A stretch of DNA of 64,000 nucleotides from Nitrospirota bacterium (GCA_963721805.1 CAVRJY010000004.1:128001-192000), one strand, 5' to 3'; counted from the stretch's first letter, positions 10,132-64,000 are shown. Translations and numbers: made by a program. Notes: generated by a model from the sequence alone, not told the origin.

Positions 10132-10423
10132 AAAGCGCTCCAAATCGCTTGATACTGCGTTGGGCTTCTTAAACTCGCCCTCTACTGAAAGCGGCTGCAA
10201 TTGCGTGATACTGCGTCACTGCCTCGGAATTCCTCCCTCGATGTAGCGGTGCTACACCTACGGTCGTTTTCCTCGCCGTTCCTTGTCTGACGCAATATCG
10301 CTCGCTTTCATGGGGATACACCATCGGGCGGTCTTCTCGCCCTGCCTTGTCTGAAGCCGATTTGGGCGCGCTTTCGGGGGAGAGGATGACGTAGCCCCCC
10401 GCACCCCCAAGGTCAACGGCATT
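10132..10423 (-). repeat. Palindromic element copy 1, with a second element nested at 10186..10310
   Basis: Arms AAAGCGCTCCAAATCG / CGATTTGGGCGCGCTTT, GC head hairpin and GGTCAACGGCATT end. The inner element is bounded by TGAAAGCG...CGCTTTCA. Confidence 0.9.
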
Positions 10424-10455
10424 GATTGGTATTTTGCATCAACAATCTTCTAACA

Positions 10456-11051
10456 GTGAAGCTCCCCGTGGCAAGCCACGGGGCATCCGTGGCGCAGCTA
10501 TAAGTCCAGCTGCGCAGGCAATTGCTTCTCTGCTCTGTGGCCGCGTATGTATTTGCGGATCATTTCCGAGGTCAAGCTGTCCCCGACTGTCCGCGCAAAG
10601 TACCCATCCTCCCACAGCTCACCCTTCCATAGTCTTTGCCTCAGCGATGGGTATTGCTTGAACAGCTCACGGGCGCTGATACTTTTCAGGGTTCTGACCA
10701 CCACCCCTATCGAGTACCGTGGCGGGAACGATAGAAATATATGCACATGGTCCTCCGCCACTTCCATCTCCACTATCTCATATTCATACTCTTCAGCTAT
10801 CTCCCTGAAAAGTTCCGCGCACCGCTCGCGCATGTAACTTTGCGCGAACAGTCTCTTGCGATACTTAGGACACCATACCAGATGGTACCCGGTGTCATAT
10901 ACAGCGTGACTCGTCCTGCGTAACCCCATGCCTCATGATAGCCCGCAATTGCCTCGGCGGGAAAGGGGGACTTCCAGCCCCCCTTACATCCCCCCGGCAG
11001 GGATGCCATTCATCCCCGTGGCAAGCCACGGGGCATACTGGCATGGTTTTC
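10456..11051 (-). mobile_element. IS200/IS605-family IS (tnpA only), copy 1, 596 bp
   Basis: Subterminal hairpins CCCCGTGGCAAGCCACGGGG at both ends. Appears identical to 18421..19016. Both copies lie 3' of TAAC on the minus strand with no target duplication. Confidence 0.93.
10498..10929 (-). CDS. tnpA: IS200 Y1 HUH transposase TnpA
   Basis: YHLVWCPKYR, DHVH (HUH), LWEDGYF and IRKYI (catalytic Tyr). Confidence 0.95.
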   Translation of the reverse strand: MGLRRTSHAVYDTGYHLVWCPKYRKRLFAQSYMRERCAELFREIAEEYEYEIVEMEVAEDHVHIFLSFPPRYSIGVVVRTLKSISARELFKQYPSLRQRLWKGELWEDGYFARTVGDSLTSEMIRKYIRGHRAEKQLPAQLDL

Positions 11052-11206
11052 GTTAAAACAGGCTTTTTGTTTCTTTTGCCTGGCTTGTCACCTTTATCAG
11101 TTTTGCATAAGAATATCACTCTATTGTTTTCCTTGACTTCATAAAGGTGGTCAGCGCAAAACGCTTTGCCGCATTGAGAGCACTTTAATATGATTATGTT
11201 ATTCAT
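11052..11206 (-). pseudogene. Small Cys/His (zinc-finger-like) ORF interrupted by IS200
   Basis: CSQCGKAFCADH...C motif in AT-rich DNA. The frame runs into the IS end at ...KKPVL|TKTMP. Confidence 0.4.
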
Positions 11207-11225
11207 ACAAAATCATCTCTACTCG

Positions 11226-11504
11226 TCATTGTTTGTACAAATTTATCTTGCGCAGTATAATCCCAATTATAAAACTCAGTCCCGAGCATACTCCAGCGGA
11301 GAAGGAAAGGAAAGCCGAGGATTCTTTGGTTAGCATTGCAATGCCGGCAAATATTTGAGTTAGACCGAGATAAAATATTATCACATAAAAAAGATTTTTG
11401 TTGTTTTTGAAGTGTGTTCTCTTCAGCGCAAACATACTAATAACCATTGACGCCCCTAAAATAATCACAATAACACCAGCTATGGTGAAAAAATCTATCT
11501 TCAT
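11226..11504 (-). CDS. Small 3-TM membrane protein (AT-rich cargo)
   Basis: Three hydrophobic segments. TGgTATCTT, 6 nt, ATG start at 11504. Confidence 0.6.
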   Translation of the reverse strand: MKIDFFTIAGVIVIILGASMVISMFALKRTHFKNNKNLFYVIIFYLGLTQIFAGIAMLTKESSAFLSFSAGVCSGLSFIIGIILRKINLYKQ

Positions 11505-11586
11505 GAGCCTAAGATACCACAACCGCGTTGAGTATGCCAGAGGATTCTTAGCAGTAGGCAGCGCGCGGATGTGGCTTATCTAATAA

Positions 11587-11763
11587 GCCGTTGACCTTGG
11601 GGGAGCGGGGGTCCAGCGGCAGAGCCGCGACCAACCCCCGAAAGCGCGATAAATCGCGTCAGACTAGGAAGGTCGAGAAGACCGCCCGACGGTGTACTGA
11701 GACGTACTCCGAGGGCGCGTCTTTGATGGCCTGACAACGTATCACGCGACTTTAGCGCGCTTT
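11587..11763 (+). repeat. Palindromic element copy 2 (inverted partner of copy 1)
   Basis: GCCGTTGACC head, GC hairpin, AAAGCGCG...TCAGAC...GTGTAC/GTACTC...GTATCA...GCGCGCTTT. Confidence 0.85.
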
Positions 11764-11775: not shown

Positions 11776-13038
11776 CTAAAGTACCGGCACCTGCCATGAG
11801 GGCTGCGCGGGTACGTGCGCGTTGCCCGGCACATACTGGTATTCCCTAGTCCACGGCTGCGCATGGAGGCCGGGCTTCGCCTGCTTCGTGGCTAATAGCT
11901 GGTTGACAGATATCCAGCCACGCTCGAAGGCGTGCGCGCAGCCTGCCATGTAGATAAGCCATATGCGGTAGCGTTTCTCGCCGACGGCGGCCACGGCCTC
12001 GTCTCTACGCGCCTGAAGCCTCGCGACCCAGTGCATCAGCGTCTGGGCGTAGTGCGGCCTGAGGGATTCCATGTCGAGCACCTCAAGGTCCTGCGCCTCC
12101 ATCTCATAAGCGGTTCGGCTCAGGTGCGGGAGCTCGCCGTCCGGGAAGACGTAGTCCTCGATGAACCGTCCGCCGCTCGGGCTGACGCTCCGGTTGTCCG
12201 GGTCGCGCGTGGTGATGCCGTGGTTGAGCACTAGGCCGTTTTCCTTAAGCAGCCGCCGCATCACGCCGAAATAGACCGGCAGCTTGCGGAGCCCGACGTG
12301 CTCGAACATCCCGACCGAGGAGATCTTGTCGAATACGCCCTCGCCGGGTATGTCGCGGTAGTCTTGCAGCCTCACCTCGACGCGGCCGATGAGCCCCTCG
12401 CGCCCGACGCGTTCGGTCGCATACTCAAACTGCTCGCGGCTGAGCGTTACGCCCAGCGCTTTGACGCCGTAGTGCTTCGCGGCCCAGGTGATCAGCCCGC
12501 CCCAGCCGCAGCCGATGTCCAGCAGCCGCTCGCCGGACCTGAGGCGAAGCTTGCGGCAGATGTGGTCGAGCTTCTGCTCCTGCGCGGTGTGTAGGTCCTC
12601 GTCCCCGCTCCGGAAGTACGCGCAAGAGTAAACCATGTTCCTGTCCAGCCAGAGCGAGTAGAACTCGTTGGACACGTCGTAGTGGCTTTGCACCGAGCGC
12701 GCGTCGCGCCTGCGCGTGTGGCGGAACACGGACAGGCCCGGCAGCAGCCCGGCAGAGTTGCCCCTCGACTCCTCGCCGTTTAACGCCTCGGCTATCTGCA
12801 TCAGGTCCGCAAGCGGGCCGTCGAGGTCGATCTGGCCCTCGACATAAGCCTTCGCGAGGCGGTCCATCGTGGGCCGCAGGAGGATCATCGCGGCCCCCAT
12901 GCTCTTAAATGACATGACCACCGTGGGGTTGGGCCCCAGGTCGATCGCGGAGCCGTCCCAGAGGCGGACCCTGAGCGGCAGTTGCTTGCTTATCAGATTC
13001 TTGCCGAGCCTTGTAAGCAGCGACGTGGTGGAGTTCAT
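11776..13038 (-). CDS. cfa: Cyclopropane-fatty-acyl-phospholipid synthase
   Basis: HYDVSNEFY, YSCAYF, LLDIGCGWG and SVGMFEHVG motifs. Start chosen at 13038 after a GGAGG SD; 13077 is possible. Confidence 0.92.
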   Translation of the reverse strand: MNSTTSLLTRLGKNLISKQLPLRVRLWDGSAIDLGPNPTVVMSFKSMGAAMILLRPTMDRLAKAYVEGQIDLDGPLADLMQIAEALNGEESRGNSAGLLPGLSVFRHTRRRDARSVQSHYDVSNEFYSLWLDRNMVYSCAYFRSGDEDLHTAQEQKLDHICRKLRLRSGERLLDIGCGWGGLITWAAKHYGVKALGVTLSREQFEYATERVGREGLIGRVEVRLQDYRDIPGEGVFDKISSVGMFEHVGLRKLPVYFGVMRRLLKENGLVLNHGITTRDPDNRSVSPSGGRFIEDYVFPDGELPHLSRTAYEMEAQDLEVLDMESLRPHYAQTLMHWVARLQARRDEAVAAVGEKRYRIWLIYMAGCAHAFERGWISVNQLLATKQAKPGLHAQPWTREYQYVPGNAHVPAQPSWQVPVL

Positions 13039-13136
13039 ATTGACCCTCCCTGTGGACAGATGTTCTATATTCCCCATAGTAAGAAAATTCTAGCAGGGAA
13101 TCCGTCTGTCCGCAACTGGTGTAGTTTCATTTCTTT

Positions 13137-13276
13137 AAAGCGCTCCAAATCGTCTTCAGACTAGGAACCGGACGAAAAACGACCGCAGTCGTATATGGAA
13201 TGGACATACGTCAAGGATCGTTTTTCAGACGGTGAAAGGAGAGGGCCAGTCGGCCCTAAGCGATTTGGAGCGCTTT
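13137..13276 (+). repeat. Palindromic element copy 3 (solo, no head)
   Basis: Perfect 16-bp terminal inverted arms AAAGCGCTCCAAATCG / CGATTTGGAGCGCTTT. Inner stem GAAAAACGA / TCGTTTTTC. Confidence 0.9.
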
Positions 13277-16114: not shown

Positions 16115-16982
16115 CCTCCCGGCGTTTCTGCTCGAGCGCTCAGAGGCGCGGCCTCCTTCAGAGCGGGGTCCTAGATTTCGCACCCCTGTGATAGAGCGCG
16201 GGATAAGGCAGACCGCGTCTCTTATCAGCCGGACGTTTGAGCAGTGGGACACCGCGCGGCGTGACGGCGTGCTCCAGCGTGTCGACGCGCGCGTGAAGCT
16301 CGCCGCACTTATAGCGATGCTCGTGGTCATATCGCTAAAGCGCACCTTGATGCCGCTTGCCGTGGCAGAGGCAGCGCTTCTGGCGGTAGCGGCTCTCTCG
16401 GGCATAGGGTTTATGAACTACGCCAGGCGGGTATTCCTATTCGCGTTCGTCTTTGGGTTTCTGGTAGCCGCCCCATCGGCCTTCATCACGCCCGGAGAGG
16501 GGATCGTCTCTGTGATCGGAAGTTTCGGCATAACGAGGCCGGGCGCGATGGGAGTTGCGATGCTTACGCTGCGCGTGGGCTGCTCTGTCTCGGCCGCGCT
16601 GCTGATACTCTACAGCACCCCGCTGACCGAGCTTCTTCGCAGCTTGAAACTCCTGCGAGTGCCGGATGCGGTCGTGCTGATGATCAGCCTCGCGTACAAA
16701 TACATCTTCCTGCTTAGCTACGGGGTCGAGCGGATGCACCTCGCGGTGATGGCGAGGCTCGGCATGAGGCTGCACTCAGGCGAGGCCCGCCACTGGGCCA
16801 GCGGGCGCATGGCCGCGCTGTTCATCCGCTCCAGGGAGCAGTGCGAGGAGCTCTATAAGGCGATGCTGGCGCGAGGGTTTCGGGGCGAGGTCAGGCTGCG
16901 CTCTGCCGGAAGGCTCGGTATAAGCGATCTCATTGCCGCACTCTTCGCGGCCGCGCTGATCGCGGCGGTGGCGGCGCTATGA
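16104..16982 (+). CDS. cbiQ: ECF transmembrane component CbiQ/NikQ
   Basis: LQRVDARVKL...AMLARGF motifs. Confidence 0.88.
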   Translation: MAGNLPAFLLERSEARPPSERGPRFRTPVIERGIRQTASLISRTFEQWDTARRDGVLQRVDARVKLAALIAMLVVISLKRTLMPLAVAEAALLAVAALSGIGFMNYARRVFLFAFVFGFLVAAPSAFITPGEGIVSVIGSFGITRPGAMGVAMLTLRVGCSVSAALLILYSTPLTELLRSLKLLRVPDAVVLMISLAYKYIFLLSYGVERMHLAVMARLGMRLHSGEARHWASGRMAALFIRSREQCEELYKAMLARGFRGEVRLRSAGRLGISDLIAALFAAALIAAVAAL

Positions 16983-17791
16983 GCGACTGCTTCGCACTCA
17001 AGGACGTGACCTACGGCTACCGCGCGGGCATACAGGCGCTCGACGGCGTTACCCTGAACATACCCGAAGGCAGCCGGTTTGCGGTGATCGGATCGAACGG
17101 ATCGGGGAAGTCCACGCTCTTTCAGGTCCTGGCCGGGTTGATCGAGCCGACCTCCGGCACGGTCGTATTCCGTGACAGGCCTCTTAATGCCGACGCGCTT
17201 GGACGCGCGGAGTTCGTGCGGTATTTCCGCGGCTCGGTGGGGTACGTGTTTCAGGACCCGGACGTGCAGCTCTTCTGCCCGACCGTGATGGACGAACTCA
17301 CGTACGGCCCCCTGCACCTCGGACTCACGGACGACGAGGCGGTCGGCCGCAGCCGCGAGGTGATGCGGTATTTGGAGATAGAATCGCTCGCGGACCGGCC
17401 CTCATACATGCTCTCGGGCGGTGAGAAAAAGCGCGTGGCCATAGGCTCGGTCCTCACGATGAACCCCAATGTGCTGCTGCTCGACGAGCCGACTAATGGA
17501 TTGGACCCGCGCACGCAGAGCTTCGTCGTGGAACTCATGATTGGCCTCTCTGAGGCCGGAAAGACTGTCATCATCGCAACACACGACCTATCGCTGGTAT
17601 ACGAACTCAAGGCGCAGGTCGCTGTCATGGGCGAGGACCACCGCATAGCGGCAACCGGCCCGGCATCGCAGATACTGGCGGACGAGGACCTGCTGCTTCG
17701 TGCCAACCTGATCCACGAGCACCGGCATATACACGAGGGCAGCCCGGAACACGCTCATAGACACTCGCATTTCTTTTTCCATAGGCATTAG
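16979..17791 (+). CDS. cbiO: ECF ATPase CbiO/NikO with His-rich tail
   Basis: GSNGSGKST, LSGGEKKR and LLLDEP motifs. C-terminal HEHRHIH...HAHRHSH. Confidence 0.92.
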   Translation: MSDCFALKDVTYGYRAGIQALDGVTLNIPEGSRFAVIGSNGSGKSTLFQVLAGLIEPTSGTVVFRDRPLNADALGRAEFVRYFRGSVGYVFQDPDVQLFCPTVMDELTYGPLHLGLTDDEAVGRSREVMRYLEIESLADRPSYMLSGGEKKRVAIGSVLTMNPNVLLLDEPTNGLDPRTQSFVVELMIGLSEAGKTVIIATHDLSLVYELKAQVAVMGEDHRIAATGPASQILADEDLLLRANLIHEHRHIHEGSPEHAHRHSHFFFHRH

Positions 17792-17793: not shown

Positions 17794-17967
17794 AAAGCGC
17801 GCCAAATCGCTTGATACGTTGTCACCATTTGAAAATCGCCCTCCAGAGTACATCTCGGTACACTTGCGGGCTATTTTCAAATGCTTCCTAGTCTAAAGAC
17901 GATTTGGGCGCGCTTTCGGGGGGCACGGAAAAAGGTCGCCCCCCGCGCCCCCAAGGTCAAAGGCATT
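17794..17967 (-). repeat. Palindromic element copy 4
   Basis: Same arms and head as the other copies. Its long hairpin is the near-exact reverse complement of the one in copy 5. Confidence 0.92.
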
Positions 17968-18014
17968 AATGGATAACTTCCGCACGCGCGTTTTGTTTGA
18001 TATAGAATATAAAC

Positions 18015-18371
18015 ATGGAGCTGTTATATGACTTTGCGCGCGTGACCAGCCGCCAGCCGTTCATGGTCCCGGCGGTGCTCTTCCTCATCCTCTCCGTGCC
18101 GATAGCCTTTGGATGGGTGCCCCGCAACCGGTGGTATGGGATGAGGACGCGCCGGACGCTTGCTAACGATCTCGTTTGGTACGCCTCGAACCGCTTCTGC
18201 GGAATTGCGCTGATCGCGTCGAGCGTCGTTTACCTGTCTGTAGCCGCGATAGTGCCTTACCGCTCGCCAGCCGATGACTTCGATATATGGCTTATCCACG
18301 CGGCCACATTCGTGCTCACGAACGCAGCGAGCTTAATAGCCACTATCGTCTATTCGAGGAGGATAAAATGA
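18015..18371 (+). CDS. SdpI/YhfL-family immunity membrane protein
   Basis: VPRNRWYGMRTRRTLANDLVWYASNRFCG, the SdpI signature (N.xYGxRT...W...NR..G). Confidence 0.85.
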   Translation: MELLYDFARVTSRQPFMVPAVLFLILSVPIAFGWVPRNRWYGMRTRRTLANDLVWYASNRFCGIALIASSVVYLSVAAIVPYRSPADDFDIWLIHAATFVLTNAASLIATIVYSRRIK

Positions 18372-18420
18372 TGTCCTTTACCTTGGCGTCCTACTGAAGC
18401 GGTCCCCTTTTATAACAATA

Positions 18421-19016
18421 GTGAAGCTCCCCGTGGCAAGCCACGGGGCATCCGTGGCGCAGCTATAAGTCCAGCTGCGCAGGCAATTGCTTCTCTGCTC
18501 TGTGGCCGCGTATGTATTTGCGGATCATTTCCGAGGTCAAGCTGTCCCCGACTGTCCGCGCAAAGTACCCATCCTCCCACAGCTCACCCTTCCATAGTCT
18601 TTGCCTCAGCGATGGGTATTGCTTGAACAGCTCACGGGCGCTGATACTTTTCAGGGTTCTGACCACCACCCCTATCGAGTACCGTGGCGGGAACGATAGA
18701 AATATATGCACATGGTCCTCCGCCACTTCCATCTCCACTATCTCATATTCATACTCTTCAGCTATCTCCCTGAAAAGTTCCGCGCACCGCTCGCGCATGT
18801 AACTTTGCGCGAACAGTCTCTTGCGATACTTAGGACACCATACCAGATGGTACCCGGTGTCATATACAGCGTGACTCGTCCTGCGTAACCCCATGCCTCA
18901 TGATAGCCCGCAATTGCCTCGGCGGGAAAGGGGGACTTCCAGCCCCCCTTACATCCCCCCGGCAGGGATGCCATTCATCCCCGTGGCAAGCCACGGGGCA
19001 TACTGGCATGGTTTTC
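18421..19016 (-). mobile_element. IS200/IS605-family IS, copy 2
   Basis: Same 596-bp sequence and same terminal hairpins as 10456..11051. Confidence 0.93.
18463..18894 (-). CDS. tnpA: IS200 transposase TnpA
   Basis: Protein identical to 10498..10929. Confidence 0.95.
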   Translation of the reverse strand: MGLRRTSHAVYDTGYHLVWCPKYRKRLFAQSYMRERCAELFREIAEEYEYEIVEMEVAEDHVHIFLSFPPRYSIGVVVRTLKSISARELFKQYPSLRQRLWKGELWEDGYFARTVGDSLTSEMIRKYIRGHRAEKQLPAQLDL

Positions 19017-19528
19017 GTTAGTTGAAAACGCACGGGCATCAATTTTTACTATTAACTTCGGTTTATATATAAACCAAAGTATCGCATTGTTTGTTGTATA
19101 GTGGTGCTATGAGCAAGATAATCGCATATCCAATGGGCGGGGCAACGAATGAAGCGGGCATCGACGCGTTTTCGGAGGCAGGGTCGAAAACCGCGCGAAT
19201 TATTCGAACATCCGAACAGCGCCGGACTCGGAAAAACGATGTTTTCCAGGGGCTTATCCGCGTATTTGCCTCAAACATCCGAACACATAAAATAAAACGC
19301 GCGCGCGCGGTATGCATATATATGCCTATGATCGGGCCTCAAACCATGCCTTTGACCTTGTGGGGCGCGGGGGGCGGGGCCGACTGGCCCCCTTCTTTCC
19401 CCCCGAAAGCGCGCCCAAATCGTCTTCAGACTAGGAAGCATTTGAAAATAGCCCGCAAGTGTACTGAGATGTACTCTGGAGGGCGATTTTCAAATGGTGA
19501 CGACGTATCAAGCGATTTGGTGCGCTTT
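19017..19528 (+). repeat. Palindromic element copy 5 (core 19346..19528) with long 5' extension
   Basis: The extension (GGTTTATATATAAACC palindrome, two AACATCCGAACA, CGCGCGCG) is shared with 40476..40825 and 61539..61942. Confidence 0.9.
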
Positions 19529-22439: not shown

Positions 22440-24929
22440 ATGGCTGACAAACCGGCTGAAGAGCAGCTTCCCGTCTCACCGACGCCCTACCCTGACGCCG
22501 GCTCCTGCGGGCCGGAGATGGGCAAGCTCTACCGCCTCATCGTCTCGATGCTCTGCAACGACTACCGCCCGCCGCGCAAGGACACGTTCTATAACGGCCT
22601 CGCATACTACGTCCGCGAGCGGCTCATCGACAGATGGATAGCGGCCCAGCGCCTCTCGTACGCGCGAGAGGCCAAGCGCGTCTACTACCTCTCGATGGAG
22701 TTCCTGCCGGGGCCGTTCCTGAAGAGCTACATCACGAACCTCGATATGGCGGATGAGTGCAAGCGCGCGCTGGACTGCTCCGGGTTCACGGTCGACGGCC
22801 TGGCGCCAGAGGAGGCCGAGCCCGGCCTCGGCAACGGCGGCCTGGGGCGGCTCGCGTCGTGCTACATGGACTCGATGGCCACGCTCGGCATATCCGGCTA
22901 CGGCTACGGCATCCGCTACGAGTACGGGATATTCAACCAGCGCATCTCAAACGGCTGGCAGGTCGAGGAGTCCGACAACTGGCTCCAGAAGACCAACCCC
23001 TGGGAGATCGGCCGGCGCGGGTTTCCCTTCGCGCTCAAGTTCTATGGCCGCTCCGAGGCCTACACCGACGAGCAGGGCAACAGGCGCTACCGCTGGGTCG
23101 ACACCGAGACCGTAAACGCGGTGGCCAACGACATCCTGATCCCCGGCTACGGCAACGAGACCGTAAACAACATGCGGCTGTGGTCCGCCGTGTCGAGCAA
23201 GGAATTCAACCTGCAGTTTTTCAACCGCGGCGACTACATCCGCGCGATGGAGGCCAAGGTCCTTACCGAGAACATCTCGAAGGTCCTCTACCCCAGCGAC
23301 GAGCCGGAGCAAGGCAAGACGCTGCGCCTCAGGCAGCAGTACTTCCTCGTGGCCGCGACGTTCCAGGACATCATGCGGCGGTTCCGCAAGCTCCCGATGT
23401 ACATCCGCGACCTGCCGCGCTACGTCGCGGTGCAGCTCAACGACACGCACCCGGCCATCAGCATCCCGGAGCTCATGCGCATCCTCCTGGACGAGGAGGG
23501 CATGGGCTGGGACGAGGCCTGGCAGGTATGCGTCGAGACCTTCGCGTACACCAACCACACCGTCATGCCCGAGGCGCTTGAGCGCTGGCCGGTGAGGCTG
23601 TTCATCAAGCTCTTCCCGCGCCACCTGGAGATCATATACGAGATCAACCGGCGGTTCCTCGAAGAGGTCGCGGCCAAGTATCCGGGTGACGCCGACCGCC
23701 TCCGCCGCATGTCGATCATCGAGGAGGGCGCTGAGAAAAAGGTCCGCATGGCGCACTTAGCTATTGTCGGCAGCCACCGCGTAAACGGCGTGGCCGCGCT
23801 CCATACCCATATCCTCAAGACGCGCCTGTTTAAGGACTTCGACGAGTTCTTCCCCGGCCGCATCATCAACGTCACGAACGGCATCACCCCGCGCCGCTGG
23901 CTCATGCAGGCCAACCCACCGCTTGCGGCGCTCATCACCAGCACTATCGGGCCGGGCTGGACCACGAACCTCTACGACCTGCGCTGGCTCGAGCCGCACG
24001 CCGAGAACCAGGCATTCCGCGCGTCGTGGCGCAAGGTCAAGCGCGAGAACAAGAAGCGCCTCGCCGAGTACATCCTTCAAGTGACCGGCATAACCGTGGA
24101 CGCCGACTCGATGTTCGACATCCAGACGAAGCGCATCCACGAGTACAAGCGCCAGCTTTTAAACGTCCTGCACGTCATCACGCTCTATAACCGCATGCGC
24201 AAGGAGCCGCGCGCCAAGTACGTCCCGCGCACCGTTATCATCGCCGGGAAGGCCGCGCCCGGCTACTACATGGCCAAGCTCCTGATCAAGCTCGTCAACT
24301 CGGTGGCCGACGTAGTAAACAACGACCCCGCGATCAAGGGCCGCTTAAAACTCGTCTTCCTGCCCAACTACAACGTCTCGCAGGCCGAGAAGGTCGTCGC
24401 CGCCGCGGACGTCTCGGAGCAGATATCGACCGCGGGCATGGAGGCCTCCGGCACCGGGAATATGAAGTTCTCCCTAAACGGCGCTGCCATCGTGGGGACG
24501 CTCGACGGCGCTAACGTCGAGATCCGAGACGAGGTCGGCGAGCGCAATATCTTTATCTTCGGGCTCACCGAGGACGAGGTACAGGGCCTGCGCACCTCGG
24601 GCTACAACCCCTGGCACTTCTACCACTCGGACCCCGAACTGCGCGAGGCCGTGGACATGATCACCTCGGGCCGCTTCAGCCCGGAGGAGCGCGACCTGTT
24701 TAGGCCGATCACGCAGTCGATCCTCGATCAGGGCGACTACTACATGGTGCTCTCTGACTACCGCGCGTTCATCAACGTGCAGGACGAGGTCGACCGCGCG
24801 TACCGCGACATCGAGGGCTGGACACGCCGGTCCATACTCAACACCGCACGGATGGGCAAGTTTTCGAGCGACAGGGCGGTCAAGGAATATGCAGAAAAGA
24901 TATGGGGACTGGGACAGGTCGGAATATAA
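22440..24929 (+). CDS. glgP: Glycogen/starch phosphorylase
   Basis: GLGNGGLGRLA, QLNDTHP, KRIHEYKRQ and EASGTGNMK (PLP lysine). Confidence 0.97.
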   Translation: MADKPAEEQLPVSPTPYPDAGSCGPEMGKLYRLIVSMLCNDYRPPRKDTFYNGLAYYVRERLIDRWIAAQRLSYAREAKRVYYLSMEFLPGPFLKSYITNLDMADECKRALDCSGFTVDGLAPEEAEPGLGNGGLGRLASCYMDSMATLGISGYGYGIRYEYGIFNQRISNGWQVEESDNWLQKTNPWEIGRRGFPFALKFYGRSEAYTDEQGNRRYRWVDTETVNAVANDILIPGYGNETVNNMRLWSAVSSKEFNLQFFNRGDYIRAMEAKVLTENISKVLYPSDEPEQGKTLRLRQQYFLVAATFQDIMRRFRKLPMYIRDLPRYVAVQLNDTHPAISIPELMRILLDEEGMGWDEAWQVCVETFAYTNHTVMPEALERWPVRLFIKLFPRHLEIIYEINRRFLEEVAAKYPGDADRLRRMSIIEEGAEKKVRMAHLAIVGSHRVNGVAALHTHILKTRLFKDFDEFFPGRIINVTNGITPRRWLMQANPPLAALITSTIGPGWTTNLYDLRWLEPHAENQAFRASWRKVKRENKKRLAEYILQVTGITVDADSMFDIQTKRIHEYKRQLLNVLHVITLYNRMRKEPRAKYVPRTVIIAGKAAPGYYMAKLLIKLVNSVADVVNNDPAIKGRLKLVFLPNYNVSQAEKVVAAADVSEQISTAGMEASGTGNMKFSLNGAAIVGTLDGANVEIRDEVGERNIFIFGLTEDEVQGLRTSGYNPWHFYHSDPELREAVDMITSGRFSPEERDLFRPITQSILDQGDYYMVLSDYRAFINVQDEVDRAYRDIEGWTRRSILNTARMGKFSSDRAVKEYAEKIWGLGQVGI

Positions 24930-25130: not shown

Positions 25131-25134
25131 ATTT

Positions 25135-25160
25135 AAAAAAGGGGCCTTTCGGCCCCTTTT
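25135..25160. terminator. Bidirectional intrinsic terminator
   Basis: AAAAAAGGGGCC-TTTC-GGCCCCTTTT between convergent glgP and the cytochrome gene. Confidence 0.75.
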
Positions 25161-48992: not shown

Positions 48993-48998
48993 CATCTC

Positions 48999-49536: not shown

Positions 49537-49630
49537 ATCGGTACTCCTTTCGATACTTTTAATAGTACCTTAAATATATCATTAGCGCAGCTAAATATCA
49601 AGCCTTGATAGAGCCCTGTATAATTGAAAT

Positions 49631-50224: not shown

Positions 50225-50302
50225 AAAACAAACCGGGCGCCGGCCCTCTCGGAACCGGCACCCAGTTTGCTTCTCACACGGGCGCGTTAGGGCGGTTAGC
50301 CC

Positions 50303-51448
50303 TTACTGCTGCCCGTGGCAGAGGGTGTTGTTGAAGCAGTCGTATTTCTTCCCCGCGGGGAGGGGTGAAACGCCGTGGCAGAGAGCGCACACCACGGCGT
50401 TCGCCCTTGAGGTATTGGTATGGGTATAGACGTCATCCCTCCAGGGCGACAGCGGATGAGGCGTGCCCAAGCCGCCGTGGCAGGAATAACAATCTTGTCC
50501 TGATTGTCCGCCGTTTAAGGTATCACCGTGGCAGCTCTGGCAGGTGATGAAGCTCTGTATCGCGTTGTCAGCGTTCGGAGCGGGCGCAAGCTTCGCGGCG
50601 ATGCCGTGCGGCTGCGGGTCGCCTTCGGCGGCGTTCCAGCCGTCCGGGTGCGGGTCGATGACGCTGTGGCAGAGCGTGTTGTTAAAACATTCAGAGGGCA
50701 CGTCGAGCGGCACCCCGGCCCCGGAATCGTCCCGGTGGCAAAATGCGCATACGGGCGCGTTAGCGGTATCGGTGGTTATGTGCCTAAGCACATTGGGCCC
50801 CGGGTCTTGATCGTCGACAGGCCCCCATGGCGGGGTATCCGAATGCGGGGCGTCGAGGCCGTGGCAGCCGAAGCATGATGGGGCGAAGGCCGTGCCCGTG
50901 ACCACGCCATCGAAGGCGACTCCGTGGCATGCCGGAGTATTGCACGAGGCGAACCCCAGAAACTCGCTGCCGTCGGGCCTGGCCTTCGCGGCCGCGCCGT
51001 GCTGGTCGCGGTCCAGCCAGTCTCTTGGGTGGACGTGGCAGAGCGTGGCGTTGAAGCACCCGATCTCGGTGCCATCAGGGGCCGGGGCCGGGTTATTGTT
51101 GTGATGGCAGAGGGCGCATACCGGGGCATTGCCCTCGTTCGTGTTAGTGTGCTCAGCGAGCCAGACCTCGGCCTCGGGATGAGGAGCCGGCACGCCGTGG
51201 CAGCCGAAGCAAGACACCTCAGAGCTGCCGCCGCTGAAATCCGAGCCGTGGCAGGCCTCGCATGCCGCGAAACCGTCGTTAGCGGTGGGCGCCTCTTTGG
51301 CTACCTTCCCGTGGTCGTCGAGCCAGTCGCCGACGTGTTTGCCGGTATCGGGGTTGTTGTGGGAGCTGCCGTTTTTGGTGCTGCAGGCCGTCAGCGCGGC
51401 TATCGCCAGGGCTACGAGCATTATCTTAAAGAGTGTCTTTATCATCAT
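50303..51448 (-). CDS. Lipoprotein multiheme cytochrome (up to 12 hemes, three internal repeats)
   Basis: Lipobox LTAC. Eight CxxCH, three CFNxTLCH (CX5CH) and one CNTPACH (CX4CH). Confidence 0.88.
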   Translation of the reverse strand: MMIKTLFKIMLVALAIAALTACSTKNGSSHNNPDTGKHVGDWLDDHGKVAKEAPTANDGFAACEACHGSDFSGGSSEVSCFGCHGVPAPHPEAEVWLAEHTNTNEGNAPVCALCHHNNNPAPAPDGTEIGCFNATLCHVHPRDWLDRDQHGAAAKARPDGSEFLGFASCNTPACHGVAFDGVVTGTAFAPSCFGCHGLDAPHSDTPPWGPVDDQDPGPNVLRHITTDTANAPVCAFCHRDDSGAGVPLDVPSECFNNTLCHSVIDPHPDGWNAAEGDPQPHGIAAKLAPAPNADNAIQSFITCQSCHGDTLNGGQSGQDCYSCHGGLGTPHPLSPWRDDVYTHTNTSRANAVVCALCHGVSPLPAGKKYDCFNNTLCHGQQ

Positions 51449-51885
51449 CTGTGGCACGCCTTGCACCGCGCGTTGTTGCCCCTGCCGTGGCACCTGAAGC
51501 AGGGCGCGGGGTCTATCTGCGCGTCTATCATGTGCCTGCTGACGTAGTCGCCCCTGTGCGGCATGTCCATGTCGGGCGAGTCCTTATGCTTGTCGCTGGG
51601 CTTGATCTCTTCCTTGGTGGCATGGCAGTCGGCGCAGAAGGCCTCGAGATGGCATGCGCCGCAGACGAGAGGGTTTTGGCGCGCGCGGAACTTGTGCATC
51701 GTCGACCAGTCCGAGGCGTGGTCCATCTCGGGCCACTTGTCCGGATGGCACGAGCTGCATATCGGCATCGTCGTCAGCTCTATCGGGTGCTTCTGGATCG
51801 CGAATGAGGTGCCGTAAAGCGCGGCGACCGCGACGAATGCAAGAGCCGAGATGAACAGAAACTTTATGCGGGCTGATTTATTCAC
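51445..51885 (-). CDS. Pentaheme c-type cytochrome
   Basis: Signal peptide. CSSCH, CGACH, CADCH, CFRCH, CKACH. Confidence 0.9.
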   Translation of the reverse strand: MNKSARIKFLFISALAFVAVAALYGTSFAIQKHPIELTTMPICSSCHPDKWPEMDHASDWSTMHKFRARQNPLVCGACHLEAFCADCHATKEEIKPSDKHKDSPDMDMPHRGDYVSRHMIDAQIDPAPCFRCHGRGNNARCKACHR

Positions 51886-51888
51886 CCC

Positions 51889-53184
51889 TTACCCCTTTCC
51901 GAACTTGTATATGAATTTCAGCATGCCCCTGACGTCCTCATCGAAGTAGGGGCTCTTTTCAAACTCGACGTCGCCCGCCAGCCGGATATTTTTCGTGAAG
52001 TTATACCCGAGCGAGCCGACGATTGCATACGCGTCAGAGACGCGGTTTATCTTCCTGTCATAGTTCACGTCCAGGAGGTCGGCCGTGAGGTCGAAGTTGT
52101 ATAGCTTCCCGGTCGCGTACGTCCGGTACTGGTTGTACCTGAGCCCGTCCTCGTTGCCGTCCATCCTGTCTACCGAGACCCCGGCCGTGAAATTGTCACC
52201 CAGCATGTACTTTATCGTGCCGCCAAAGTTCTGGGCCGAGCCCGAGACCTTGTAATCGTAATTTTTATACCTGAACGTGAAGCTCAGCTCCTCGATCACG
52301 AAGAACTCGACGCTGCCGCCGCCCATGTCGTAAGTCTCCTTGGGGTTGAGGTTCAGGCGGTCAAACGCGCTCAGCGTCGTCGCGGCGAAGTAGTACCTGT
52401 AATCGACGTGCGAATAATCCCCGCCGAAGCGGACCTTGTCGAGCACCTTCACGCCGTCGATCTCGGGGACAGAGAACGGGCCGAGGGTCAGGTGGTAGGT
52501 GTGCTCCATCCAGCCCTCGTCCCTGACGTTGTAGTTGGAGTTGCCCTGGATGTCGAGGAATGAGATCGGGCGGACCCAGGAGTCGATCCCGGCCTCTTCC
52601 CTGAACGCATGGCTGTCACTCTGCTCCTGAAGGTAGGACGCCCCTATCTTGAAATACTTGTCCATCCCGTACGCGACCCTGCCGCCGTAAATGAAGTCGC
52701 CCCGGCGGCTGGTGGGGTCGGCGTAAAGGTTGACCGGCGAGCCGGTATACGCCGAGATGTCGAGGCCCTTGACCGGCTCGACCCTGGCGTAGGCGCCGTC
52801 AACCTGCTCGGCCGCGACGCCCTCGAACACGTATAGCCTGCCGAGCCTGAAGCGGGACTTGATGGCGTCGACCCCGAGGTCAAGGTAGGCGTAGTTGAGG
52901 TCGTCGTTAAACCTGTCCTCCGCCCTCCTGTCGCCGAGGTCCTCCCTGACCCAGCCGTTAATATGGAAGGACAGGTCCTGCCCGGCGATGTTGTCGACGT
53001 TGAAGGTCAGGTATTCATAAAACGGGACGAGGTGGTCGCCGTTGAACGCCTCGCGGGCCATCAGATACGAGCTGGATTCGCCCGAATAGTCCATGGCCCT
53101 GGCCATGCCGGGGACTAGCAAAAACAGCATGGCCGCTATAACCATACAGCTTTTCTGAACTTTTCGACTCTTTTGTGTCTCCAT
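51889..53184 (-). CDS. Outer-membrane beta-barrel of a porin-cytochrome complex
   Basis: Signal peptide, alternating aromatic beta-strands and terminal ...FIYKF. First gene of the cytochrome operon. Confidence 0.8.
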   Translation of the reverse strand: METQKSRKVQKSCMVIAAMLFLLVPGMARAMDYSGESSSYLMAREAFNGDHLVPFYEYLTFNVDNIAGQDLSFHINGWVREDLGDRRAEDRFNDDLNYAYLDLGVDAIKSRFRLGRLYVFEGVAAEQVDGAYARVEPVKGLDISAYTGSPVNLYADPTSRRGDFIYGGRVAYGMDKYFKIGASYLQEQSDSHAFREEAGIDSWVRPISFLDIQGNSNYNVRDEGWMEHTYHLTLGPFSVPEIDGVKVLDKVRFGGDYSHVDYRYYFAATTLSAFDRLNLNPKETYDMGGGSVEFFVIEELSFTFRYKNYDYKVSGSAQNFGGTIKYMLGDNFTAGVSVDRMDGNEDGLRYNQYRTYATGKLYNFDLTADLLDVNYDRKINRVSDAYAIVGSLGYNFTKNIRLAGDVEFEKSPYFDEDVRGMLKFIYKFGKG

Positions 53185-53367
53185 TCACAGTTTATACATA
53201 ATTATGCCCGGCTTGTCAAGAAAAAATATCCTCATGAAAATAAATTTTAGCGCAGCCCTATTATCGTTATAATCCGGCCATCCGCGGCAGCCCCGGCGCG
53301 TTCCCGGCGGATGGGGTTTTATCCCGATTAGTGCTGCCGCGCGGGCATGTGCTAAAATAGCAGCCCT

Positions 53368-54915
53368 ATGCCGAAATCTGATGGAATCGTATACCTGGTC
53401 GGGGCCGGTCCCGGCGACATCGGCCTCCTTACTATAAAAGGACTCCGCTGCCTGAGCCGCGCCGATGTCGTTGTCTACGACTTCCACCTCAACGCCCAGG
53501 TGCTCAACTACATCCGCCACGACGCCGAGTTCATCTACGCCGGCAAGCGCGGCGGCCACCACACGATGACCCAGGACGACATAAACGCCGTGCTCGTCGA
53601 GAAGGCCAAAGAGGGCAAGCGCGTATGCCGCCTCAAGGGCGGCGACCCGTTCGTCTTCGGCCGGGGGGGCGAGGAGGCCGAGGCGCTGGCGGCCGAGGGC
53701 CTCGCGTTCGAGGTCGTCCCCGGCGTGAGCTCGTCGGTCGCGGCCCCGGCGTATGCCGGAATCCCGCTTACGCACCGCCGCCTGAGCTCGTCCTTCGCGG
53801 TCGTGCCGGGCTATGAGGACATGACCCGTAAGGACGTCTCCGCGATAGACTGGTCGAAGCTCGCAACCGGCGTCGGCACGCTCGTATTTCTGATGGCCGT
53901 AAAAAACATAACCGAACTGATGAACAAGCTGATCGAGCACGGCCGCCCGATAGATACGCCAGTGGCGGTCATACGCTGGGGCACGCGCGCCGACCAGCGG
54001 ACGCTCGTAAGCACGCTCGGGCGCATAGCGGCCGAGGTCAAGGAAAACGACATCAGGCCCCCGGCCGTCATGGTCGTAGGCGAGGTCGTGCGGCTCAGAG
54101 AGACGCTCAACTGGTTCGAGAAAAAACCGATGTTCGGCCAGCGCGTGCTCGTAACCCGCGAACACTCAGGCGGCTTCGACCTGCTTGAAGACCTCGGCGC
54201 GGAGGTCATAGAGTTCCCGACCATCCGCATCGCCCCGCCTGAAAGCTGGGCCGAGGTGGACCGGGCCCTTGATAATATTGCCGCGGGCCGGGCCCCCTAC
54301 GGCTGGGCGGTATTCACGAGCGCAAACGGGGTGAAGTATTTCTTTAATCGCATGACCGAGACCGGCGGCGACATCCGCGACCTAAAGGGCGTCAAGCTCT
54401 GCGCGATCGGAGAGAAGACCGCCGAGCGGCTGCGCTCGATGGGGCTGCGCGTCGATATGGTCCCCGAGGAGTTCAACGCCGAGGGGCTCACCGAGGCTTT
54501 CCTTAAACTGACAAAGAACAATAACTTCGAGGGCATGCGCTTCCTGCTGCCGCGCGCCGAGGAGGCCCGCGAGAAATTCCCCGATGCGGTGCGCAAGCTC
54601 GGCGGACATATAGACACGGTCACGGCATACCGGGCCGCGCTCCCTGAGCGCCACCCCAGACGGCTTAAGCGCTTCCTCAAAGAGGGCCGCATCTCGATAG
54701 CCACGTTTACGAGCGCCGCGACGTTCAGGAACTTCATCACCCTGATGGATGAGGGGCTCGAGCCCCTAAAAGACGTAACCATCGCAGCGATCGGGCCGGT
54801 GACGAAGCGCGCGATAGAGCGCGAAGGTCTAAAGGTCACGATCATGCCGGAGAAGGCCACTGTCGATGCCATGGTCGAGGCGATCCGCGTCTGGGCCACA
54901 TCCCCCAAAAAATAA
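53368..54915 (+). CDS. cobA: Fused uroporphyrinogen-III C-methyltransferase / synthase
   Basis: YLVGAGPGD, RLKGGDPFVFGRGGEE, then a HemD domain (FTSANGV, AIG.KT, FTS). Confidence 0.95.
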   Translation: MPKSDGIVYLVGAGPGDIGLLTIKGLRCLSRADVVVYDFHLNAQVLNYIRHDAEFIYAGKRGGHHTMTQDDINAVLVEKAKEGKRVCRLKGGDPFVFGRGGEEAEALAAEGLAFEVVPGVSSSVAAPAYAGIPLTHRRLSSSFAVVPGYEDMTRKDVSAIDWSKLATGVGTLVFLMAVKNITELMNKLIEHGRPIDTPVAVIRWGTRADQRTLVSTLGRIAAEVKENDIRPPAVMVVGEVVRLRETLNWFEKKPMFGQRVLVTREHSGGFDLLEDLGAEVIEFPTIRIAPPESWAEVDRALDNIAAGRAPYGWAVFTSANGVKYFFNRMTETGGDIRDLKGVKLCAIGEKTAERLRSMGLRVDMVPEEFNAEGLTEAFLKLTKNNNFEGMRFLLPRAEEAREKFPDAVRKLGGHIDTVTAYRAALPERHPRRLKRFLKEGRISIATFTSAATFRNFITLMDEGLEPLKDVTIAAIGPVTKRAIEREGLKVTIMPEKATVDAMVEAIRVWATSPKK

Positions 54916-61190: not shown

Positions 61191-61265
61191 GGTAAGATAA
61201 TCGCCCATTCGCCCCAAAAAGTCAAGGGGGCGAGGGATACTTTTACCTATATCGGCGTCTCTTCC

Positions 61266-61942
61266 AAAGCGCTCCAAATCGCTTGATACTGCGTTGGGCT
61301 TCAAAGACTCGCCCTCTATGTACGTCACATCAGTCCGCTTGGTCAAGCGTCCGGGGCCTTTTTCAAAGCGCTCCAAATCGTTTGATACTGCGTTGGGCTT
61401 CAAAGACTCGCCCTCTATGTACGCCCAAGTACACCATCGGGCGGTCTTCTCGCCCTGCCTTGTCTGAAGACGATTTGGGCGCGCTTTCGGGGGGCACGGA
61501 CAAAGGCCGCCCCCCGCGCCCCACAAGGTCAACGGCATGATTTGAGGCATGTTCTGATGCTCGCGCTTAGGTATAGTTACGCATTCCGCGCGCGTGCGCG
61601 CGCGTTTTTGCGTCTTTTGTTCGGATGTTGGGCAAGAATATGGCGATAATATCTTGAAAACACTCATTTGTTTGTCAGCCCTCTGTTCGGATGTTCGGAT
61701 AAAAGACGCGTTTTCTGGCCCATCATCCGAACACGCGGCGCTTGTCGAACACGCAGAACACTTCGGCTCCGCGCTGAGTGCTTGATGGCCTCTTGTCTTC
61801 CCTTTCAAATACATACCTAACTTACTCATCGCACCACTATACACCAAAGAAGGCCAAACTTTGGTTTATATATAAACCGAAGATAATAGGAAAAATTTAG
61901 GTTCGTGCGTTTTCTATTAACTTACGATTAACTATGGTTAAT
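61266..61942 (-). repeat. Palindromic element copy 12 (half copy + full copy 61365..61538) with long extension
   Basis: 1.5-copy core like 44688..44961. The extension is homologous to 40476..40825. Confidence 0.9.
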
Positions 61943-62226
61943 AAGCGCTCACCTACATCAGACACACGACACCGTCAAATTCAATGCACTGAACTTTGGA
62001 CACGCACGGACGCGGTTTGTTAATTTGGCTTCTAGCCTGGGTTTTCTCGCAACGAGTTGATTACATATAGAAAATAACCATTCTGTTATATTCAATCATT
62101 ACTGTATTTTCTGCCTTTTCATACCGCTTCTGCTACAATTTTGCTCCAGTCAGAAAGCCTCTAATATATAATTGCAAAGATTAATATTTTGGTGCTTCTG
62201 ATATAATTATTGCGGTAATAACTATC

Positions 62227-64000
62227 ATGACCACTCAGCCTGATTTACTCGCTAAGATAGTAACACCGCAACTGAAAAAACAGTTACGAGAGATTTGCGC
62301 GTTCGCTGAGAAGTTCTGGGAAAAGCCTTTTCTTTACTGGTTTACTAATCATGACGTAGAACATTCTAAGGAAATTATCCGGCGCATAGAACAAATAATC
62401 GTCCCGCTTGAGGGTACTGATAAGGCACTTAATGAGCACGAGACTTTCATACTCCTAGCCTCGGCTTATCTGCATGATATTGGCATGCAATATCTAAAAT
62501 ATGAGGGCAAATCTCCGGAAAACTTCACAGCTCAAGATTATAATGCAATACGGAAACTGCACGCTCAGTCAAGCTATGAACTTATCCGCAAGGGTATTAC
62601 AGCAAAGCTAGATAGAGACGATGTACACTTCCCGGATTTAAGCAAGCAATATATCCCCATTATTGCCCTAGTCTCGAAAGGCCACTCTGGCGACTTCTTT
62701 GAGGAGGTAGTAAATCACTTTGAAAAAACCCCCTATTCTCCAGACAACTGCGAAGTCAGAGGGGGACTTCTCACTGCGCTTCTACTCATAGCCGACGAGC
62801 TTGACCTTCATGCACGGCGCGCAAACTTCGATAATCTGAAGAACTATACCCCTTCCAGCTATACGTTTTCACACTGGTACAGACACCATTACGTGGAGCA
62901 CGTCGCTGTCGTTGAATCGTCTGTAAAGTTATTATTTGAGTTTCCGGACAATGCTGGTGATTACGCATCGCTGGTTATTTCTGCTATAGAGACGAAGATA
63001 GAGCAACAGATTTCATTCGTAGAGGATACGATCCGAAAAGCTACCGGAAGGATTCTGCTTAATCGCAAAGTTGAGATCAATCAGCGAGTAAATCCTGAAA
63101 CACATCGTCGTTCTATGCCAGAGGGTGTGCAGGCTGAGTTTCGCAAATTGCTTGACGATAAAGCAGTGCAAGCTAAATCTGCCTCCGGCTCTCCACCCAC
63201 TATAGCATCGTCTTCCTATACAATAGTTCCTCCCGAAAAACCTGTTAGTATATTTACCGGACGCAAGGAAGACTTGGAGCGGTTCAAATCTGCGCTTGCT
63301 GCCTCACCCATTATCTCCATAGAAGGTATCGGCGGCATTGGTAAAACCCAGTTCGCAGCTAAATGTATTGCAGATTTGTTCAATACGGAAAAGGTGGTTT
63401 GGTTTAAATGCACTACGGATACGCAGCTTGACTCACTAATCGAGGCATCAGGTTTTCCAGATGTCCTAAAGGGTGAGAATAAGACAGAGCTTGCAAGGTA
63501 TGCTGGGTTTCTGTCACTAATTGAGAAGCACGAAAAAATCATTTTTGTTGATGACTTTCAAGAAGTCACTGACAAATCGTTTGCCGAGTTTATCAGATTT
63601 GCACATGCGCGACTTGAAAAGGCCAAGATTGTTCTTATAGATCGAGAGCACCCGAATATCTCGGGTGTACACATTGCTCCTGTTCAGCTTGAGGGGCTTG
63701 GAAGCGCGGCATTAGAGTACGCGAAGAATTTCTGTAGCACATACTATCAAGGCATAACGATCGATAATGATACATTGCAAGGGCTTTGTGACAAGGCTGA
63801 CGGACACCCGCTCTCAATAGGGTTTGCAATTCAGCTGCTCAGTTACGGTGCGTTATCTGATGACATTATTGTGGCCATGATGGGAACTAAGCAGGGAGAC
63901 GAGTTGAGTAAGCGTCTACTTGCTATGGTATTCGATCATCCTCTAAGTACTGAGGCGGAGCGCGCATTCATGCTAACAATGTCGGTCTTGCGTGGATCGT
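62227..64000 (+). CDS. HD-phosphohydrolase (HD-CE-like) fused to a STAND/NB-ARC NTPase, partial
   Basis: Not in the ORF track (no stop inside the window). My translation gives FTNHDVEHS, AYLHDIG, LIADELDL, then FTGR..DL, GIGGIGKT (Walker A, 63325-63348), IIFVDD (Walker B) and GHPL. Confidence 0.85.
   Translation, partial: MTTQPDLLAKIVTPQLKKQLREICAFAEKFWEKPFLYWFTNHDVEHSKEIIRRIEQIIVPLEGTDKALNEHETFILLASAYLHDIGMQYLKYEGKSPENFTAQDYNAIRKLHAQSSYELIRKGITAKLDRDDVHFPDLSKQYIPIIALVSKGHSGDFFEEVVNHFEKTPYSPDNCEVRGGLLTALLLIADELDLHARRANFDNLKNYTPSSYTFSHWYRHHYVEHVAVVESSVKLLFEFPDNAGDYASLVISAIETKIEQQISFVEDTIRKATGRILLNRKVEINQRVNPETHRRSMPEGVQAEFRKLLDDKAVQAKSASGSPPTIASSSYTIVPPEKPVSIFTGRKEDLERFKSALAASPIISIEGIGGIGKTQFAAKCIADLFNTEKVVWFKCTTDTQLDSLIEASGFPDVLKGENKTELARYAGFLSLIEKHEKIIFVDDFQEVTDKSFAEFIRFAHARLEKAKIVLIDREHPNISGVHIAPVQLEGLGSAALEYAKNFCSTYYQGITIDNDTLQGLCDKADGHPLSIGFAIQLLSYGALSDDIIVAMMGTKQGDELSKRLLAMVFDHPLSTEAERAFMLTMSVLRGS

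Follow-up and report, generated by a model that had tools for sequence, protein, structure and literature searches.

Toxin–antitoxin (TA) genes are found among the cargo of dif modules, multiple spaced protein-binding motifs characterize the ends of Tn7 and Mu as well as the arm sites of lambda-type attP, and the classical product of a tyrosine recombinase bears two inverted half-sites at the junction. The dif modules of Acinetobacter plasmids are accessory modules bounded by inversely oriented pdif sites for XerC/XerD (PMC6449649, PMC13141974, PMC10132070), repetitive extragenic palindromic (REP) sequences and REPINs are linked with RAYT transposases, REPs being also targets of insertion sequences (ISs) (PMC3116915, PMC3337134, PMC8450116), and mobile insertion cassettes (MICs) and TIME mosaic transposons move as a unit and leave target duplications (PMC4133298, PMC5444012). 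The subject of this study is a polar palindromic repeat, hereafter the arm, of a Nitrospirota bacterium, which was analysed in a stretch of 64,000 nt (the window, G000:C4:128001–192000) and throughout the genome containing it (2.78 Mb, nine contigs, GC 0.60, an assembly of an uncultured organism). Arms bracket low-GC accessory DNA with an inward polarity that is far beyond chance genome-wide, and they match no described system. Each of the nearest analogues fails at least one of the defining features tested.

Polarity, border enrichment and fold of the arms

Alignment of the copies revealed a polar unit of ~180 nt, in which a 123-nt imperfect hairpin is followed in most copies by a short GC hairpin and then by a conserved head of ~20 nt. 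In a second arm type the linker differs and the head is the same. The window copies were located by repeat search and by a profile built from ten of them. Genome-wide, this profile gave 240 matches, or 232 once overlaps were removed, which comprised 133 copies with the head region, 67 that were hairpin-only by profile and 32 partial copies.

Neighbouring copies faced each other with their heads in 71 cases, 52 of which were less than 3 kb apart, and with their tails in 69 cases, of which seven were below this distance. Heads-inward arrangement was found in 45 of the 79 inter-copy intervals of 150–3000 nt (binomial versus 0.25, p = 1.7e-9) and in 37 of the 41 low-GC intervals, where 10,000 shuffles gave a mean of 10.2 and a maximum of 21; thus, the orientation proved to be non-random relative to low-GC cargo, a point on which the initial annotation of the window had staked its proposal. 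None of the seven tails-inward intervals was low-GC, and neither was any of the 31 measuring up to 8 kb. The mean GC of the interiors was 0.478 versus 0.615 in the flanks for the 65 heads-inward pairs less than 8 kb apart, and low-GC DNA lay on the head side of 87 and on the outer side of two of the 200 arms. Viewed from the islands, a head-in arm stood at one or both borders of 59 of the 122 low-GC islands (17 both, 42 one, 63 none), and the 244 island borders carried 76 head-in arms and three tail-in arms. Host-gene 3′-ends far from islands bore an arm in 49 of 1776 cases (2.8%) versus 31% of the island borders (76/244), that is, arms were ~11 times commoner at island borders than at ordinary gene ends. 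The outer end of the arm was directed toward a host-gene 3′-end in 131 of 200 cases with a median gap of 16 nt, and 105 of these lay within −5 to +60 nt of the stop codon, while the other 69 arms faced a gene start or another context, as is seen in the window at pairs B and D and at the fifth locus (described below).

The fold of the hairpin was examined by counting the structure of one copy over the alignment of 33 diverse copies, as RNAalifold run on the raw MAFFT alignment had missed the long stem. In this count 78.4% of the cells were paired versus 35–45% when the partners were slid, both sides had changed in 21 of the 44 pairs, and the observed covariation value was reached by none of 500 shuffles. 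The fold of the 123-nt hairpin is thus supported by covariation and kept by compensatory changes. A 206-nt stretch of the arm at the fifth locus (61355–61560) formed a long rod with z values of −3.1 as DNA and −3.9 as RNA of the other strand. Neither the long hairpin nor the GC hairpin of the arm is followed by a T run, and the head gave no convincing match when tried as a sigma-70 promoter. Rfam yielded no match in the window at the gathering score, none at E ≤ 5 on 61200–62100 and chance-level matches only on the copy of a relative. Small GC-rich tetraloop hairpins were also inserted within some arms, for example, at 39372–39415 of the window.

Copying of the arms and the DNA next to the head

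The arms are resident and spread on their own. The longest word shared by the two flanks of a pair averaged 5.48 nt over 56 pairs versus 5.54 nt in a null of mismatched flanks, and around single arms the corresponding values were 6.82 and 6.81 nt, with at least 11 nt in two of 199. The arm at G000:C5:73520–73700 was the only one with a clear flanking duplication (16 nt, exact). The two arms of a pair were not related to each other more closely than to the rest, as the partner ranked at a median of 86.5 of 199 by similarity and the mean identity of partners was 0.779 versus 0.765 over all pairs. Only pair B of the window departs from this: its hairpins, which had been described as near-identical from the sequence alone, belong to arms that are 97% complementary and are the closest copies of each other in the genome (rank 1–2). 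Copies identical up to 99% sit at different islands. Arm-to-arm matches with identities of 93% or more numbered 469; their outer edges lay at the base of the hairpin, and their inner edges either at its end (297) or immediately beyond the head (~93). Therefore, what is copied is the hairpin, with or without the head, and never arm–cargo–arm, the hairpin by itself being the principal unit of recent copying.

A small head profile detected 160 heads, of which 149 were attached to an arm and 11 were arm-less, some of the latter being spurious. The head was followed by a conserved segment, called here module X, in 35 cases (17 with low-GC DNA further in), by arrays of small GC hairpins in 25 (none with low-GC DNA further in) and by other DNA in 100 (52 with low-GC DNA further in). 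In the arrays after cargo-less heads, a short linker of constant sequence connects two to four small tetraloop hairpins rich in GC (e.g., G000:C1:350579–350690 and C4:195450–195563). Module X is ~430 nt long and opens with a terminator-like GC hairpin directed inward; it further contains five copies of an iteron of 9–10 nt and, where it meets the cargo, a pair of short perfect palindromes. These blocks were invariant among 12 copies that were otherwise ~70–80% alike. Of 52 pairs, 20 or more had it on one side and none had it on both, although this one-sidedness, based on few cases and below significance, is no more than suggestive.

Seven pairs were empty, having 8–100 nt between the arms, and one of these contained two inverted heads 8 nt apart. 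At the opposite extreme, a locus designated L027 (G000:C1:1054944–1060320) held four cassettes (PemK-type, MNT/HepT, ParE-type and one without assigned type) split by arm-less heads in direct orientation; its left border was an arm, and its right border was made up of X, head and arm. Such a direct-head array is the pattern that repeated insertion at one site would give. Two of the four cassettes begin with paralogous small genes.

The cargo was surveyed in the 58 pairs with more than 150 nt between the arms. Of the 200 open reading frames (ORFs) with 45 aa or more in these pairs, 154 reached 70 aa, and 150 of the latter were run against Pfam. No family was assigned to 82 of the 150. The others included TA families (MNT/HepT at three loci, MazE, PemK, ParE, Phd, Gp49 with a helix-turn-helix partner, DUF2442/DUF4160), restriction–modification proteins (MmeI, an N6/N4 methylase fused to an Mrr nuclease, HNH), a KAP NTPase, Abi_C, a Cthe_2314-type HEPN protein, SRAP, an HD-CE STAND protein and three insertion sequences, and a weak TniB-like match under the family cut-off was seen in one ORF. 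Four wide pairs enclosing housekeeping genes (e.g., RuvB and RuvC) at host GC are probably chance neighbours. When the interiors of 52 pairs were compared, the 45 longest of the 111 matches of at least 250 nt showed that only IS481-like, IS200 and module X DNA is common between loci; therefore, within these best matches, the comparable cargo differs at every locus.

Window loci, insertion sequences and relatives of the hairpin

All four window pairs for which the initial annotation had given positions were recovered by the repeat search and the profile with their heads inward, and the DNA between the arms was indeed AT-richer (interior GC 0.46–0.53 versus 0.61–0.64 in the flanks). Pfam also confirmed the IS200 elements of pairs A and B, SdpI in B, the MNT–HEPN genes in C and the HD-STAND gene after the fifth copy. 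In pair A, the left arm (10132–10430, + strand) is a composite of a partial hairpin (10132–10184), a full hairpin (10188–10315) and a half hairpin with GC hairpin and head (10315–10430; head core 10406–10427). IS200 (10431–11100, −), one of six near-identical copies, begins 1 nt past the head and carries a Y1 transposase ORF at 10498–10929. The low-GC cargo (11101–11577, −), with small ORFs at 10895–11206 and 11226–11522 that had no convincing family match, is closed by the right arm (11578–11763, −; head 11584–11601), the outer end of which is separated by 13 nt from the stop of a host gene (11776–13077, −). A solo hairpin-only copy, without head and cargo, is found at 13137–13276 (−).

The left arm of pair B (17794–17974, +; head 17950–17970) begins 3 nt past the stop of the host gene at 16979–17791 and is followed by the SdpI-family gene (18015–18371, +). 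The second IS200 copy (18417–19020, −) sits in the inner tail of module X (19017–19363, −), which runs inward from the right head and is truncated at its inner end by the IS; the right arm occupies 19340–19528 (−; head 19341–19360). A solo arm with head (24945–25137, +; head 25113–25134) stands directly past the stop of the host gene at 22440–24929 and a small GC hairpin comes next; the GC of its head side is 0.63, i.e., not low. Pair C consists of a left arm with an extra small hairpin inserted in its distal half (39295–39502, +; head 39479–39499), an MNT nucleotidyltransferase and HepT (HEPN) TA pair (39653–40437, +), module X running inward from the right head (40476–40831, −) and a right arm (40819–41016, −), whose outer end is 9 nt from the stop of the host gene at 41025–42884 (−). 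Pairs A and C are located between convergent host genes.

Pair D begins with a left arm region (44688–44967, +) made up of a partial copy (44688–44751) and a full arm with head (44787–44967), beside the head of which a variant, X2-type module starts (44943–45103, +). Its cargo (45104–48810, no strand assigned; GC 0.43–0.51) contains 15 ORFs, none of which matched a Pfam family at E ≤ 0.01, so the IS256 remnant proposed there was not recovered. The right arm lies at 48811–48992 (−; head 48814–48832). An AT-rich direct repeat of ~110 nt in this cargo (45831–45940 and 46744–46852, 80–86% identical), each copy ahead of an ORF, may be a duplicated promoter region. At the fifth locus, a copy had been placed at 61266–61942; the left arm is present, and this extent resolved into an arm ending at 61544 (61266–61544, +; partial copy 61266–61329, full arm with head 61365–61544, head 61524–61543) and a separate full-length module X of ~430 nt (61521–61945, +) with its terminator-like GC hairpin (61587–61604) and T run, then five iteron copies (9–10 nt) and, bordering the cargo, the two short perfect palindromes. 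The gene of an HD-CE/STAND NTPase–TPR protein of 1150 aa (62227–64000, +) continues to window-equivalent position 65676. The partner that had been predicted to close this island was found by profile search at G000:C4:195564–195744 (window-equivalent 67564–67744, −). The interval is 6.0 kb long, and its low-GC DNA makes up the first 4.4 kb, stopping near window-equivalent 65900. A tRNA search found none in the window, which together with the missing duplications around the pairs bears out what had been said of tRNAs and target sites. Elsewhere in the window, in surroundings of host GC, two adjacent paralogous genes coding for 137–138 aa (33064–33363 and 33649–33948) are 75% identical as DNA.

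Three IS families accumulate in or beside the arm units, and those inside pairs have their own, different ends. All six IS200 copies (99.8–100% identical as DNA) are no more than 970 nt away from an arm, on its head side. Eight of the ten IS481-like copies are likewise on the head side, at up to 521 nt, and the remaining two adjoin empty pairs. Five of the seven copies of a 1.1-kb IS30-like element (G000:C1:649314–650413, C1:387250–388349, C1:759627–760726, C2:367110–368205 and C2:397054–398153) interrupt the hairpin at one fixed position, and this element appears to target the hairpin. A 23-nt duplication suspected at the joint turned out to be an alignment overlap; the element simply interrupts the hairpin. 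The IS481-like transposase was rejected as the enzyme of module X, as it has its own terminal repeats and adjoins a separate palindromic repeat array. This array, found beside most IS481-like copies within the X2-type module, comprises three to four tandem 12-nt perfect palindromes with 14-nt spacing (e.g., G000:C1:964400–964500), which look like binding sites for a dimeric protein. A RAYT or IS200 enzyme as mobilizer was likewise discarded: PF01797 found only the six equally scoring IS200 copies in the genome and no RAYT-type gene, and it had no match in three relatives carrying the hairpin (G002, G003 and G006; 96, 99 and 92% complete).

The core of the hairpin extends beyond this genome. 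A covariance model found it in six of 30 relatives (G002, G003, G006, G013, G011 and G024), and a pattern of the distal half detected it at no fewer than 21 loci in all, in two Terriglobia metagenome-assembled genomes (MAGs), in many near-identical copies, and in two Proteobacteria-labelled MAGs. The copies read in G002, G003, G013 and the Terriglobia MAGs are symmetric palindromic elements of ~180 nt that have the core at their centre and lineage-specific outer stems, and no head was seen. The inner side was lower in GC in 11 of 20 copies in the relatives and below 0.52 in none of 20, that is, GC polarity is lacking. Thus, in the carriers whose copies were read, the core is part of a symmetric element resembling a MITE (a miniature transposable element with inverted repeats), without head and without cargo. 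The combination of head and X was not found either when a sample of 400 further genomes of the phylum was searched at BLASTN level and two candidates were scored in each. Within these searches, therefore, the association with cargo goes with the head-bearing form present here. In G002 (L088–L099) and G003 (L100–L105) the core lies within MITE-like elements with differing terminal inverted repeats, most of which are, by eye, bordered by the dinucleotide TA; these borders hint at mobilization by an IS630/mariner-type transposase. On a contig of a Proteobacteria-labelled MAG (L082, ~739–858), which is a low-GC genome from another phylum, the core was seen by eye directly after the apparent 3′-end of a tRNA gene.

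The nearest genomes compared belong to other genera, with 64–79% DNA identity among the matches listed and no synteny around the pairs, and a metagenome scan with a 619-aa flank protein found no relative. One public read run, in which the share of the organism was 0.08, gave over 34000–53999 only contigs of 200–300 nt at a depth of 2–4, none of which bridged a junction or skipped the cargo; the joints listed from this run lay in a conserved host gene and came from other organisms.

Related systems and candidate mechanisms

The arms share with dif modules the small modules without their own recombinase, the inverse recombination-site-like repeats, the role as IS targets and an enzyme presumed to act in trans. 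Unlike the 28-bp pdif site, however, the arm is a structured unit of ~180 nt, the junctions bear a single head instead of an 11-6-11 dyad, the ~50 loci are dispersed in the chromosome instead of forming plasmid arrays, and a 430-nt iteron module often lies on one side. A dyad of two 11-bp arms with a 6-bp spacer was not found at the heads: inverted heads were close together at one empty pair only, and the chromosomal dif was not located. Integrons resemble the present loci in their small, promoter-poor cassettes rich in TA genes and genes without known function, in bounding these by an imperfect hairpin of ~60–140 nt with a short conserved core (attC) and, at L027, in the cassettes split by cores in direct orientation. 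In contrast, the pairs described here are inverted and scattered over ~50 loci with direct heads at one locus only, the hairpin lies outside the core instead of containing it, and none of the seven PF00589 genes, the candidates for an integrase, adjoins an arm. REPINs are likewise abundant intergenic hairpins of two inverted halves, often found after stop codons, that spread without duplications and are targeted by ISs; the genome analysed here, however, has no RAYT gene, its element is 123–180 nt long with a polar head, and oriented bracketing of cargo was not reported for REPINs in the literature found. MICs and TIMEs resemble these loci in carrying transposase-less passenger genes between two inverted copies of a short repeat, whereas the present loci lack duplications, a repeated unit and a cognate autonomous element. 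In its layout, module X recalls Tn7 and Mu ends and lambda attP, because a short motif recurs at intervals on a single side of the junction, as at an asymmetric end bound by a transposase or integrase, but a matching second end was not found. The full-text literature searched yielded no report of structured repeats bracketing cargo with fixed polarity, or of such a border bias for REP- or MITE-type repeats.

The simplest reading takes the resident units of arm and head as polar landing pads, at which an enzyme encoded elsewhere would insert foreign DNA in trans, because the arms are resident, ~11-fold enriched at island borders and turned inward at 76 borders against three, and because empty pairs and a multi-cassette array exist. 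We hold this reading tentatively, with somewhat less than even confidence. The boundary unit, a rod-like hairpin with GC hairpin and head resident in many copies, adjoins a host gene with its hairpin end, usually directly after the stop codon, and turns its head toward the intergenic space. The head would be the docking point, beside which a recombinase or transposase encoded elsewhere would join foreign DNA, and two facing units would constitute a slot. Module X may act in the reaction as a platform to which protein binds and may also insulate transcription, and ISs would accumulate in the same slots later. Insertion at the head, its enzymatic and site-specific nature and the binding of the enzyme by X are thus what we infer from the arrangement of the sequences. 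Of the two interpretations offered by the initial annotation, insertion hotspots for defence cargo agree best with these results, while ends of composite REPIN-like elements are not supported by the tests made.

Several observations weigh against landing pads. As 63 of the 122 low-GC islands bear no arm, arms are not needed for gene acquisition. Low-GC DNA was found on the inner side of 73 of 140 arms with a detectable head versus 25 of 59 without (p = 0.22); the head model misses degenerate heads, so the role of the head as determinant is not established by this comparison. Arm-less heads are rare (11/160), therefore the direct-head array is a matter of one locus and not the rule, and the junctions bear a single head followed by variable DNA instead of two inverted half-sites. 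Among the candidate enzymes, none of the seven tyrosine recombinases (PF00589) nor the one serine recombinase adjoins an arm, and the gene of an IS110-type bridge recombinase is absent from the genome, so this search identified no enzyme. Empty and filled alleles of the same slot were not found in the other genomes, which are too distant, nor was an excision junction found in the reads, which are too shallow.

The main rival reverses the order of events: a mobile unit of hairpin plus head would insert in an oriented manner at the edge of AT-rich foreign DNA, or would be selectively retained there, where the long hairpin and the terminator-like hairpin of X would insulate host genes from foreign transcription. 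Arrival of the arms after the cargo would agree with the hairpin being the main recently copied unit and with nearly identical copies at different islands, with the 49 ordinary gene ends that bear an arm without cargo, with the outer ends that point toward gene 3′-ends in 131 of 200 arms at a median of 16 nt, with the fold maintained by compensatory changes (21 of 44 pairs, none of 500 shuffles) and with the terminator-like hairpin that opens X in the direction from the head inward. No known mechanism, however, senses an island border and sets the orientation at 76 to three, and heads-inward pairs exist that are empty of cargo. The four-cassette array of L027 is unlike the outcome of border-seeking insertion, neither hairpin of the arm is followed by a T run, and the hairpin of the relatives shows no GC polarity (11/20, with 0/20 below 0.52). 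On balance we regard this order of events as unlikely. Movement of arm–cargo–arm as a composite non-autonomous transposon of the MIC, TIME or REPIN-like kind, driven by a transposase in trans, is improbable. The transposase-free cargo between inverted arms at ~50 loci, the nearly identical arms of pair B and the MITE-like elements with terminal inverted repeats in the relatives speak for it, but the reading fails because four tests go against it: flanking duplications are missing around the 56 pairs and the single arms, partner arms are unrelated (median rank 86.5 of 199), copying involves the hairpin with or without the head but not arm–cargo–arm, and there is no RAYT, as the Y1 genes are restricted to the six near-identical IS200 copies, with none in G002, G003 and G006. 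Moreover, the interiors have only IS481-like, IS200 and X DNA in common among the best 45 of 111 matches, and the transposases inside pairs have their own, different ends.

Two simpler accounts were also considered. The pattern could be the by-product of two habits, if the repeat favoured the space after stop codons in a fixed orientation and foreign DNA landed between convergent genes. The 131 outer ends turned toward host-gene 3′-ends, 105 of them at −5 to +60 nt from the stop, and the convergent neighbours of pairs A and C would be expected from this, yet the model fails because arms are enriched at island borders (31% versus 2.8% of the gene 3′-ends away from islands); furthermore, 69 of 200 arms face a gene start or another context, as at pairs B and D and the fifth locus. 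We therefore consider it very improbable. Repeats acting as false joins that stitched foreign fragments into the contigs are a concern in any nine-contig assembly of an uncultured organism, which counts against the landing pads as well, and the 200–300-nt read contigs bridge no junction. Nevertheless, a false insert would need correctly oriented arms at both ends ~50 times over, contigs of up to 1.5 Mb run through ~130 copies, and IS copies inside the slots have clean boundaries, all of which makes an assembly artefact extremely unlikely.

A more specific proposal can be made about the landing pads themselves. The arm–head–X units may be the sites of a cassette-exchange system, in which an enzyme acting in trans would recognize the head, the hairpin and the iterons would have an architectural role, and promoter-poor defence and TA cassettes would be inserted, and perhaps swapped, at ~50 dispersed and insulated slots. 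We regard such a system as possible but rather doubtful. It would be a counterpart of the integron in which the sites are inverted and scattered, with a hairpin conserved across phyla as its basis.

This hairpin family was present in no RNA or repeat catalogue searched, and even if the arm were a border-seeking insulator repeat, its orientation bias of 76 to three at island borders would be a strong regularity. If the slots are true docking sites, they would provide for the uptake and organization of defence and TA genes without an integrase, tRNA or phage in the island, which would help to explain small defence islets that have no visible mobility genes. In that case, one member of a hairpin family conserved among Nitrospirota-like bacteria, Acidobacteriota and Proteobacteria-labelled MAGs would also have a function assigned to it.

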